A program made the position numbers and the translations under genes. This document shows positions 15,519 to 19,205 of a stretch of 20,599 nucleotides of DNA, piece after piece (positions within the stretch are counted from its first letter, which is position 1; every line of letters begins with the position of its first letter). The notes under the pieces were generated by a model. The model made no database searches and was not told the origin of the DNA. It saw nothing but the letters and a program-made list of their open reading frames with translations. Origin of the DNA: a virus (taxonomy: Duplodnaviria; Heunggongvirae; Uroviricota; Caudoviricetes); IMG/VR virus record IMGVR_UViG_2541047903_000005. One strand, 5' to 3'.

Positions 15519-16665
15519 TGGTGGAAAAGTATGACAGTAAAAATTTCTGGCGTGCTTAAAGATGGCACAGGAAAACCAGTACAGAACTGCACCATTGTGC
15601 TGAAGGCCAGACGGACCAGCAGCACGGTGGTGGTGAACACGGTGGCCTCTGAAAATCCGGATGAAGCCGGGCGTTACAGCATGGATGTTGAGTATGGCCA
15701 GTACAGCGTCACCCTGCTGGTTGAAGGTTTTCCACCTTCACATGCCGGGACCATTACCGTCTATGAAGGTTCCAGACCAGGTACGCTGAATGATTTTCTC
15801 GGTGCCATGACGGAGGATGATGCCCGTCCGGAGGCACTGCGCCGTTTTGAGCTGATGGTGAATGAAGCGGCACGTCATGCCGGAGCGTCATCACAGAGTG
15901 CAGCGGCGGCAAAGAAATCCGAAACGGCAGCAGCCTCATCGAAGAATGCAGCGAAAACCTCAGAAACGAATGCAGCTAACAGCGCACAAGCGGCAGCGGC
16001 CTCGCAGACTGCATCGGCAAACTCCGCGACAGCAGCCAAAAAATCAGAAACCAACGCGAAAAATAGCGAGACAGCCACAAAGGCCAGCGAAAAAAACGCA
16101 AAATCCAGCCAGACGGCAGCGAAAACCAGTGAGACGAATGCCAAAGACAGTGAAGCCAACGCAAAGGTGAGCGAAACAGCGGCGGCGAACTCGGCGAAAG
16201 CATCGGCAGCAAGCCAGACGGCAGCAAAAGCAAGTGAAGATGCTGCCAGAGAATACGCAAACCAGACAGCAGAGCCGTACAGATATGTTTTACAGCCGCT
16301 GCCGGATGTGTGGATACCCTTTAATGATTCGCTGGATATGATTACGGGCTATTCTCCGGGTTATAAAAAAGTGAAGATTGGTGATAATGTGGTTCAGGTT
16401 GCCAGTGATAAACAGGTTAATTTCAGTCGCGCATCAACGGCAACATATATCAACAAATCTGGCGAACTGAAAACGGCGGAAATTAATGAGCCACGATTTG
16501 AGTGTGATGGCCTGCTTATTGAGGGGCAAAGAACGAACTTCTTCCCGAACAGTACAGACCCTTCGAAGTGGAATAAGTCAACTTCACTGGACGTTACAGA
16601 AACAGGCACAGATAGTTTCGGGTTTAATTATGGCCGGTTTGTCGTACAGGATTCGATTGTTGGTA

Positions 16666-16670
16666 CAAGT
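16666..16670. repeat. Target-site duplication CAAGT (left copy) flanking IS2
   Basis: CAAGT directly abuts the IS2 end at 16671 and recurs at 18002-18006 next to the other end. Confidence 0.8.
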
Positions 16671-16681
16671 TGGATTTGCCC

Positions 16682-17587
16682 CTATATTTCCAGACACCTG
16701 TTATCACTTAACCCATCACTGGCCCACTGCCGCAGATATTCCCGTGGCGAGCGATAACCCAGCGCACTATGCGGATGCCATTCGTTATAATGCTCGAACG
16801 CCTCTGCAAGGTTCTTTGCTGCCGTTAACCCGTCTGGTTTGGGCATGATACTTATGTAGTCACGCTTTATCGTTTTCACGAAGCTCTCTGCTATTCCGTT
16901 ACTCTCCGGACTCCGCACTGCCGTGTTCTTCGGTTCAAGTCCCAACATCCTGGCGAACTGACGTGTTTCATTCGCCCGGTAGCATGAACCATTATCCGTC
17001 AGCCACTCCACTGGAGACGCCGGAAGCTCGCTGCCAAAGCGGCGTTCCACTGCTCCCAGCATGACGTCCTGTACTGTTTCACTGTCGAAGCCACCCGTTG
17101 TGACCGCCCAGTGCAGTGCCTCACGGTCACAGCAGTCCAGCGCGAACGTGACCCGCAGTTTTTCTCCGTTATCACAGCGGAACTCAAACCCGTCAGAGCA
17201 CCATCGCTGATTACTTTCTTTCACAGCCACTCTGCCGGTATGTGCCCGTTTCGATGGCGGTACAGCGGGTTTTCGCTCAAGCAACAGCGCATTCTGGCGC
17301 ATGATCCGGTAAACACGTTTGGCATTGATCGCAGGCATACCATCAAGTTCTGTTTGTCTGCGAAGCAGCGCCCATACCCGACGATAACCATATGTGGGTA
17401 GCTCTCCGATAACATGGTGTATACGGCGAAGCACATCCGTATCATCCGTGTGACGGCTGCGGCGGCCGTCCTTCCAGTCATCGGCTCGTCTGAGAATGAC
17501 GTGCAACTGCGCACGCGACACCCGGAGACAACGGCTGACGAAGCTTACTCCCCATCCCCGGGCAATAAGGGCGCGTGCGCTATCCAC
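16682..17587 (-). CDS. insD: IS2 transposase OrfB (InsD), DDE integrase core
   Basis: 301-aa ORF recognised as IS3-family transposase orfB; normally expressed as an InsCD fusion by -1 frameshift. Confidence 0.9.
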
Positions 17588-17910
17588 TTTTTTGCTCGCC
17601 CATATTCAACGGCTTCTTTAAGGAGTTCATTTTCCATCGTTTTTTTGCCGAGCAGACGCTGGAGTTCTTTAATCTGCTTCATGGCGGCAGCAAGTTCAGA
17701 GGCAGGAACGACCTGTTCTCCGGCAGCCACAGCAGTAAGACTTCCCTCCTGGTATTGCTTACGCCAGAGAAATAGCTGGCTGGCTGCCACACCATGTTGC
17801 CGGGCAACAAGGGAGACCGTCATTCCCGGTTCAAAGCTCTGCTGAACGATAGCGATCTTTTCCTGTGTAGTACGCCGTCTGCGTTTCTCCGGCCCTAAGA
17901 CATCAATCAT
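17545..17910 (-). CDS. insC: IS2 transposase OrfA (InsC), helix-turn-helix DNA-binding protein
   Basis: Starts [25 protein letters not shown]; the ORF-track ORF extends upstream to 17955 but the recognised start is the Met at 17908-17910. Confidence 0.85.
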
Positions 17911-18001
17911 CTGTTCTCCAATGACTAGTCTAAAAACTAGTATTAAGACTATCACTTATTTAAGTGATATTGGTTGTCTGGAGATTCAGGGGGCCAGTCT
18001 A

Positions 18002-18006
18002 CAAGT
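18002..18006. repeat. Target-site duplication CAAGT (right copy) flanking IS2
   Basis: See left copy at 16666-16670. Confidence 0.8.
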
Positions 18007-18926
18007 AAAGCGCATACCATTATCGGACTGTATTCGAGTACCGGAGGGGTTGATACTTCAGGGGACGAAAAGCATGTAACTATATCCTGTCGGGTAAAAA
18101 GTGAAGTTGATAATATCGCCGTTCGTATTTTATTTGAACATTATGATGGGGAGGTAAGGACATCAATAGGAGCAGCAAACCTGAACCTTACCACCCGCAT
18201 AATTAGCAAGACAGGTCAGACAAGCCGTGTTACAGCAAGGTCTGTTAAGGATGATGCAACTGGCTGGATATTTTTTGAGGCTACATTAAAAGCAGATACA
18301 ACAGAAAATACGGTTGGTGGTTTTGTCCAGTATTCTCCGGATACAGGGCAGATGGTTGCATCAGGGGATTATCTCGATGTAACCACTCCACAGATTGAGG
18401 CTGGTACAGGCGCATCATCTTTTATTGTTACGGGGACGGCACCGGTAACGCGGGCAAGCGATATGGTTACAGTTCCGATTAAGAATAATCTTTATAATCT
18501 TCCTTTTACGGTTCTTTGTGAGGTACATAAGAACTGGTATAAAACGCCAAATGCAGCACCGCGTGTTTTTGACACATACCGGCATCAGGCAGATGCGGGG
18601 ATCGTAATGGGGTTTGGTTCATCAGGTGGGTACGACGGTTTTCCGTATTGTGATATAGGTGGTTCAAACCGACGAATAAATGAAAATGCCGGGCTGGAAA
18701 AAATGCTTATTGGTATGCGGGTAAAGTCCGAACGGTCCACATGTGTAGTCAGTAACGGTAAGTTAAGCAGCGAAACTAAAACCAAATGGGAATATATCCG
18801 GAGTACAGCAACCATTCGCATTGGTGGACAAACTACAGCAGGATTACGCCATTTATTTGGGCATGTGAGGAATTTTCGTCTCTGGCATAAAGAGCTAACA
18901 GATGCGCAGCTTGGGGAGGTTGTGGA

Positions 18927-19205
18927 GTGAGAGATTTCACGTTGCGTTTCAGTGATAAAGCAGATTTCAGGGCATTTCTCAGGAAACTTAACTGGGAAGA
19001 GGACGAAGAGCTGCAGAATGCCGTTCTGGTTGATGAGATTGGTTTTACGTTCAGTGAGTCAGGTGTTTCTGCTGACGGGGAGCCTGAATACACGCGAGAC
19101 GAAGGGTACTTTGTTAATATTCGTCTTCTTGACGATGGCTTTGATGAATCCGTGTTCCGTGAGTGGGTGGTTACACCAGAGCGCCCGCTCAGGGAGTGGT
19201 TTTAA
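18927..19205 (+). CDS. Hypothetical acidic 92-aa protein, start overlapping the tail-fibre stop
   Basis: GTG at 18927 overlaps the TGA of the tail fibre gene (GTGA); no internal ATG; acidic, non-repetitive composition with phage-like GC content; function unknown. Confidence 0.45.
   Translation: MRDFTLRFSDKADFRAFLRKLNWEEDEELQNAVLVDEIGFTFSESGVSADGEPEYTRDEGYFVNIRLLDDGFDESVFREWVVTPERPLREWF

Follow-up and report, generated by a model that had tools for sequence, protein, structure and literature searches.

Positions 15531 to 18930 of the viral record IMGVR_UViG_2541047903_000005, a 20,599-nucleotide stretch of DNA from a member of the Caudoviricetes (the whole of which we refer to as the window), raise the question as to what kind of tail fibre is encoded there, what its tip might bind, and whether the fibre can be made at all. 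From its relatives and its neighbours we identify this region as the side tail fibre gene (stf) of a lambda-like Escherichia coli prophage, with 15531 and 18930 as the true start and stop of the gene. Taken as a whole, we consider it quite probable that this is an stf gene inactivated by the insertion sequence (IS) IS2, and that its intact product is a 687-residue mosaic of four parts, likely to bind surface polysaccharide reversibly.

The interruption is evident from the reading frames themselves. Two plus-strand open reading frames (ORFs), rather than one, lie within 15531-18930, the first at 15531-16757 (408 residues) and the second at 17974-18930 (318 residues), and between them is an overlapping pair of minus-strand ORFs in which Pfam recognizes transposase domains of the IS3 family (HTH_Tnp_1 in one; rve, rve_3 and HTH_21 in the other). 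These belong to an element of 1331 bp on the minus strand (16671..18001) that is bounded by imperfect terminal inverted repeats and, outside these, by a 5 bp target-site duplication, CAAGT, with its left copy at 16666..16670 and its right copy at 18002..18006. The orfA gene (17545..17955, minus strand) carries HTH_Tnp_1 (PF01527, E 2.4e-19), orfB (16682..17587, minus strand) encodes the DDE integrase core, and an A6G slippery site (AAAAAAG) is present at approximately position 17593, inside the overlap of the two. The element is 95.9% identical, without gaps and across all 1331 bp, to an annotated IS2 of E. coli N32; its size, inverted repeats, 5 bp duplication, orfA/orfB arrangement and frameshift site all match, and it is IS2, of the IS3 family.

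Deletion of IS2 and one CAAGT copy in silico yields an open frame of 2064 nt and 687 residues with the junction after codon 380. An earlier note on this DNA, made from the sequence alone, had spoken of a reconstructed protein of about 688 residues and was silent on the interruption; its length is recovered here to within one residue. As the sequence stands, the 5′ part of stf (codons 1-380, 15531..16670, plus strand) extends up to the insertion point and the interrupted ORF then runs on to 16757, such that the 408-residue product consists of 380 native and 28 IS-derived residues. Because IS2 truncates the protein at residue 380, an intact side tail fibre cannot be made in this genome; the fibre gene is dead, split by IS2, with everything past residue 380 removed.

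Elsewhere the gene is commonly intact. Many complete E. coli chromosomes are listed with an IS-free allele, at identities of up to 100%; that of E. coli CE10 (WP_015674652.1), annotated as 'prophage tail fiber N-terminal domain-containing protein', is an example. One 90% cluster alone contains 1063 sequences, and in a homologue search with the tip all 120 matches listed are E. coli copies at ∼100% identity. In its exact form the truncated product is recorded on a single contig, KE701794.1 (GCA_000460515.1), and the IS2 insertion at codon 380 was found in none of the complete genomes in the collection. Because the split product is on this one contig and absent from complete genomes, and the intact allele is widespread, we take the IS2 insertion to be strain-specific, in an otherwise common gene.

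Other strains show independent insertions in the same fibre cassette. IS600 lies inside the fibre gene in two other genomes (NZ_OZ546943.1 and NZ_CP032204.1), and N32 is the only complete genome with IS2 in the fibre region (locus L002, 4843-6071). We considered N32 as a second case of the same IS2 event and rejected it, as its IS2 sits in a 92-residue ORF downstream of the fibre gene and is an independent event. The cassette may be a recurrent target of IS elements, or may be under relaxed selection in prophages.

What, then, would the intact protein look like? The fibre starts MTVKISGVLKDG, and its N-terminus is the collar domain of Stf (residues 1-91, 15531..15803, plus strand), which by comparison with the Ur-lambda structure would anchor the fibre to the tail. 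Pfam PF08400 (phage_tail_N) matches residues 1-131 with an E value of 7.5e-68 (227 bits against a cutoff of 26.6), residues 1-112 are 87.5% identical to 'orf-401; similar to lambdap27' of the lambda-derived phage DE3, and BLASTP aligns the two proteins across residues 1-158 at 74% identity; past residue ∼158 the match to lambda orf-401 is a compositional similarity of the shafts only. The shaft, rich in alanine, serine, threonine and lysine, comprises about 18 heptads (residues ∼118-245, 15882..16265, plus strand) as judged by period-7 autocorrelation. Within residues 115-252 the amino acids A, S, T, K, N, E and Q make up 91% of the total, and the period is exactly seven residues, with identities at lags of 7, 14, 21 and 28 of 0.40-0.45, compared to 0.17 in shuffled sequences (0 of 2000 shuffles reach the observed value); we searched for a tandem repeat at the DNA level in the shaft and found none. 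Both the lambda Stf-like N-terminus of about 110 residues and the A/S/T/K-rich repeat shaft that the earlier note had described are thus confirmed.

The strict heptad periodicity fits a coiled coil, which by analogy is presumed to be trimeric. In the cryo-electron microscopy structure of Ur-lambda, Stf residues 1-91 form the collar domain, twelve copies of which ring the tail where gpV meets gpM; a flexible linker (residues 92-101) follows, and then a trimeric coiled coil (residues 102-393), with each virion bearing four Stf fibres that are each a trimer (PMC12617516). With a near-identical collar and a heptad shaft, attachment of the lambda type and a trimeric stalk would be the natural reading here. 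The gene also lies where a lambda-type stf gene lies, in that it comes after J and lom and closes a late operon of lambda type.

Beyond the shaft there is no similarity to lambda orf-401. The last 438 residues begin with a conserved connector (residues 250-296, ...LQPLPDVWIPFNDSLDMITG..., 16278..16418, plus strand) that is delimited on a conservation map and in which P7, P9, D10, V11, W12, P14, D17, L19 and G24 (module numbering) are nearly invariant among 84 relatives. The earlier note had described the tip as a C-terminal LamG/ConA-like domain, which holds for the end of the protein; the description was incomplete in that a second, larger lectin-type domain of ∼230 residues (residues ∼297-524) precedes it. 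It is this middle domain that IS2 has cut, its first part (residues 297-380) lying at 16419..16670 and its remainder (residues 381-524) at 18007..18438, both on the plus strand.

Several comparisons bear on the nature of the middle domain. The NCBIfam model NF048003, GTA_spike_fiber (for gene-transfer agent, GTA), gives residues 329-530 a score of 72.1 bits (cutoff 36), in an alignment that takes in profile positions 1-181 of 182. A profile built from 30 sequences over residues 297-524 and run against the PDB matches the RcGTA head spike fibre Rcc01080 (6TB9, E 3.9e-31), followed by Sf11 gp17 (9OCC, E 7e-14), E217 gp45 (8ENV, E 6e-13) and Pa193 gp46 (9B45, E 7e-13), with weak matches to a CBM-cenC protein (9EUF, E 0.039) and to a CBM4 (1GUI, E 0.25). 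In a Foldseek search with the whole tip module the top matches are Pa193 gp46 and E217 gp45. Three of the 30 middle-domain homologues match Pfam PF02018 (CBM_4_9; best E 6e-9), this copy being without a match. On these alignments we assign the middle domain to a beta-sandwich related to Rcc01080, and it is probably of the CBM4/9-like class. Two PDB entries were tried as guides to the fold and rejected, 6TB9 since only residues 2-10 of the Rcc01080 chain are resolved, and Sf11 gp17 since it is modelled only for residues 3-165. Rcc01080 binds the capsular polysaccharide of Rhodobacter (PMC7296036, PMC10218006), and the homologous part of Sf11 gp17 corresponds to an unmodelled appendage 'of currently unknown function' (PMC12724387).

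The final domain (residues 525-687 and the stop codon, 18439..18930, plus strand) is predicted to be a ConA-like beta-sandwich of the laminin-G/pentraxin type. The protein does end ...RHLFGHVRNFRLWHKELTDAQLGEVVE, and this end aligns with the final strands of Laminin_G_3 (profile positions 98-149 of 151). The Pfam search that the earlier note had suggested as a check gives a divided answer: with the single sequence it is equivocal, because the copy in the window scores below the cutoff (PF13385; 17.6-18.8 bits against 27.6, across the last 52 residues only), and at the family level it is positive, with 49 of 61 homologous C-terminal domains matching Laminin_G_3 on their own (E <= 0.01; best E 3.2e-13). 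The family profile matches PDB structures over approximately the whole domain, these being 4QVS (E 2e-6), NanA CBM40, BoNT/D Hc and CRP, and in the 4QVS alignment the terminal framework motif of Laminin_G_3 is matched by the conserved end GH(I/V)RNxRIWHxALTDxQ. Because the top structural matches aligned 184-220 residues, which is more than the last domain holds, we modelled residues 521-687 alone from the 61-sequence alignment. The resulting model has a predicted local distance difference test score (pLDDT) of 90.5 and a predicted template modelling score (pTM) of 0.85, and is a two-sheet jelly-roll beta-sandwich that is superimposable on LamG, pentraxin or CBM40 structures. Owing to the confident model, the family-level Laminin_G_3 matches and the PDB profile matches, the assignment of the C-terminus as a LamG/ConA-like jelly roll, as modelled, stands.

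Neither in the tip nor in the two ORFs downstream did searches of Pfam, PHROG and NCBIfam find phage-fibre-repeat or Tfa-type families, and comparison with lambda orf-401 gave no similarity past residue ∼158; in these comparisons a gp37-like distal rod and tip with a downstream Tfa, of the kind that lambda Stf has, is not seen. The data are thus consistent with the proposal that the tip is not of the lambda/T4 gp37 type.

How widely is this tip shared, and which parts of it vary? A search of residues 250-687 against 1.84 billion representative proteins (50%-clustered; E <= 0.001) recovers 3086 representative relatives, many of which cover all 438 residues at 30-67% identity and almost all of which end 0-6 residues from the aligned C-terminus. 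By tblastn the tip is present in 225 phage records that include lambda-like (ev243, 99% identity), Dhillonvirus, T1-like, T5-like and rV5-like groups, with partial matches in Aeromonas, Synechococcus and Rhodobacter phages. We regard the connector and the two sandwiches as a 438-residue C-terminal cassette that has been exchanged between very different coliphages together with the 92-residue ORF. We also note that records labelled as Campylobacter phages C13 and C14 (MG065692.1 and MG065653.1), and some labelled as Listeria, contain coliphage-type tips (41-65% identity) and the 92-residue ORF; these are probably mislabelled or contaminated. Neither a receptor for this type of tip nor a structure of it is described in the literature searched, which was a limited collection.

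Among the 84 relatives, conservation (mean identity to the query 0.42-0.65) is seen at residues 250-339, 505-534 and 655-684, and the cores of the two sandwiches are hypervariable, with mean identities of 0.15 for residues 340-504, a core whose length also ranges from 53 to 155 residues, and 0.19 for residues 535-654. Such a distribution would be expected where conserved frames, or recombination joints, surround surfaces under selection for host range. Because the middle-domain core is at least as variable as that of the LamG domain, receptor binding need not lie in the LamG domain, or in that domain alone, and it could be supposed that the middle CBM-like domain sets specificity by itself, with the LamG-like domain acting mainly as a structural cap, or as a folding or assembly element in place of an intramolecular chaperone or Tfa. 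This is compatible with the reading we favour and does not exclude it, and we think it rather unlikely: the core at residues 535-654 is as variable as the middle core, as would befit a surface under host-range selection, and the conserved final motif is in the 4QVS alignment the generic Laminin_G_3 framework.

If both sandwiches are retained as candidates for binding, the intact fibre could work as follows. A lambda-type collar (residues 1-∼91) would attach the fibre as in the Ur-lambda ring, and a flexible linker and ∼18-heptad coiled-coil shaft (residues ∼118-245) would join three chains into one fibre. The GTA-spike/CBM4-9-like sandwich (residues ∼297-524) would come next, and then the laminin-G/pentraxin-type ConA-like sandwich (residues ∼525-687). 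The variable cores of one or both sandwiches would bind a surface polysaccharide reversibly (O-antigen, capsule or lipopolysaccharide core), concentrating the virion on the cell and speeding adsorption before J engages the terminal receptor. The gene structure, its disruption by IS2, the domain families, the folds and the distribution are what the analysis shows; the trimeric state, the glycan binding and any role of the 92-residue ORF are what we infer from the comparisons given. Polysaccharide binding is favoured because of the class of fold, the relative that binds capsule, the matches of some members to CBM_4_9, and the O-antigen use ascribed to phages that share the tip; in these siphophage groups O-antigen is regarded as the primary, though dispensable, receptor of the lateral fibres (PMC8594841).

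Some observations weigh against this reading. The CBM4/9 assignment draws on weak profile matches and on 3 of the 30 members, in the PDB entries of Rcc01080 and Sf11 gp17 the corresponding regions are unresolved, and the Laminin_G_3 score of this copy is below the Pfam cutoff. Glycan binding is argued from the fold class and one characterized distant relative, that of RcGTA; the lectin-like receptor binding and the different host receptor put forward in the earlier note are likewise deductions from fold and relatives. The tip could be monomeric or trimeric, given that each RcGTA spike carries one fibre chain and lambda Stf is a trimer. Moreover, ConA-like and LamG folds also bind proteins, as in neurexin and botulinum toxin Hc, and include enzymes.

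This last point allows two other functions to be proposed. The tip could bind a protein receptor, such as an outer-membrane porin or similar, instead of polysaccharide; there are precedents in lambda Stf, whose receptor is OmpC, and in the protein-binding LamG/LNS and botulinum Hc domains. We judge this improbable, since the best-scoring relatives with known ligands are carbohydrate binders (CBM40 and sialidase lectin domains), the nearest characterized sequence relative, Rcc01080, binds capsule, some middle-domain members match CBM_4_9, and phage groups for which O-antigen use is reported bear the same cassette on their lateral fibres. Alternatively, the tip could be an enzyme that cleaves surface polysaccharide in the manner of a tailspike, using a ConA-fold glycanase or lyase (cf. 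GH16, and alginate or glucuronan lyases). The fold does accommodate such enzymes; the GH16-type matches, however, rank well below the lectin modules and the variable core lacks a conserved acidic pair, and we give this very little weight. Reversible binding of surface polysaccharide is the function that we prefer.

The fibre gene is followed by two small ORFs. The first (18927..19205, plus strand) encodes an acidic 92-residue protein (isoelectric point 4.25) that belongs to phrog_1361, which PHROG lists as unknown. Its GTG start overlaps the TGA stop of the fibre gene (GTGA), and it is apparently translationally coupled to it. The ORF occurs in 187 phage records with nearly the same taxonomic breakdown as the tip, typically abutting the fibre gene, and it has no match in Pfam, NCBIfam or the PDB. 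It occupies the position of lambda's Tfa and is a candidate accessory or assembly factor. The second, the third gene of the local cassette (19215..19511, plus strand; phrog_1443, unknown function), encodes a hydrophobic protein of 98 residues (grand average of hydropathy +0.52) that is probably a small membrane protein. It was considered as a conserved third gene of the exchanged cassette and rejected, as the ORF of the same size at that position in phage KarlBarth is unrelated.

A broader interpretation can be offered tentatively. The 438-residue tip and the 92-residue ORF might together be a self-contained receptor-binding cassette that is independent of Tfa, presenting three independently folded two-lectin heads on a coiled-coil stalk, sharing ancestry with the head spikes of gene-transfer agents, and portable between siphophage and myophage fibres; the 92-residue acidic protein might then be a fibre accessory of a new class, acting as assembly factor, cap or adaptor. 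We hold these propositions jointly as a possibility and not as an expectation. If they were true, the cassette would offer a ready-made means of retargeting lambda-based delivery particles to glycans. Stf chimeras have already been screened for such particles, and the cassette boundaries and conserved joints (residues ∼250-339, 505-534 and 655-684) are information for Stf chimeras in host-range engineering.

Mosaic tail fibres with lectin-type tips are of a familiar kind, and this protein is in RefSeq, with curated family models for both tip domains. What is added here is the IS2 disruption, the second lectin-type domain, the distribution and boundaries of the cassette, and the 92-residue partner gene. 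A very common E. coli prophage protein that is named in RefSeq by its N-terminus only thereby gains a domain-level annotation, its tip is linked to the only characterized relative, a capsule-binding GTA head fibre, and its conserved 92-residue partner is flagged; the practical value is modest.

Upstream, the surroundings of the gene are of lambda type. The J tail-tip protein (10912..14712, plus strand; NCBIfam lambda_TipJ) and Lom (14780..15379, plus strand; Pfam Ail_Lom, E 1.4e-128) precede stf, and J-lom-stf is the lambda gene order. Upstream is a complete lambda-type late operon in lambda order, with protease/scaffold, decoration protein, major head protein, FI, FII-like head closure protein, neck, tail terminator, major tail protein, G and tape measure. 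We note that J, at 1266 residues, is longer than the lambda_TipJ model of 1163 positions, its match to the model falling into two stretches; J bears a coiled-coil-like insert with a direct protein repeat at residues 920 and 949. Between lom and the start of stf a GC-rich stretch is followed by seven T residues (GCTGCGGGCTTTTTTT, at ∼15501-15520); this is terminator-like and could limit read-through into stf.

Two further genes lie to the right of the fibre cassette. A YkgJ-type CxxCxxCC cysteine-cluster protein is encoded at 19629-19961 (minus strand), between the cassette and a gene for a VapA/VapB-family protein (20147-20599, plus strand; Pfam R_equi_Vir, E 5e-34) that continues past the end of the window. 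In CE10 the VapA-like gene is situated between the tail end of the prophage and a truncated ompW, and it may be a moron or a gene of a flanking island. The prophage end in CE10 adjoins this truncated ompW (locus L001, 10312-10437), next to yciEFG and trp. Because the truncated ompW adjoins yciE at the right end of the prophage, integration of this prophage family into ompW is suggested.

The fibre can be compared with several known systems. The C-terminal domain, as modelled, falls in the Laminin_G_3/pentraxin/CBM40 branch of the ConA-like superfamily, with a sequence identity to its members of only 7-17%. The middle domain is held in common with Pa193 gp46, E217 gp45 and Sf11 gp17, and in Sf11 it is a peripheral appendage; in these phages, however, baseplate or distal-tail proteins carry the domain as an insert, not at a fibre tip, and it is without a LamG-like partner. 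The relationship to Rcc01080 is clear in sequence over its residues 46-264, and the frame motifs NEPRFE...LLxEGxxTN and QxEAG...S.IPT are common to both proteins. Rcc01080 is a single chain whose N-terminal (I/L)-G repeat peptide plugs into a pentameric head spike base (PMC7296036), whereas reading of the reconstructed translation shows that the fibre's N-terminus lacks an IALGLGLGL-type peptide, and the domain here would sit behind a lambda collar on a presumably trimeric tail fibre. A LamG-like domain of ∼165 residues also follows here, for which Rcc01080, with 325 residues, has no room.

With lambda Stf, named orf-401/orf-314 in laboratory lambda, the fibre shares the J-lom-stf locus, a near-identical collar and an Ala/Ser-rich shaft that would also be a coiled coil, and presumably its attachment to the tail and its role as an accessory adsorption fibre. 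The shaft here is only ∼130 residues long, in contrast to that of lambda, which spans residues 102-393 and is followed by a hinge and a distal coiled coil, and the gp37-like distal rod, OmpC-binding tip and Tfa gene of lambda are replaced by the two-sandwich lectin-type cassette and the 92-residue ORF. The lateral fibres of Dhillonvirus, T1-like (Drexlerviridae), T5-like (Markadamsvirinae) and rV5-like coliphages have N-terminal anchors and shafts that are unrelated to those of lambda Stf, and they bear the same 438-residue tip at 35-65% identity, usually together with the 92-residue ORF.

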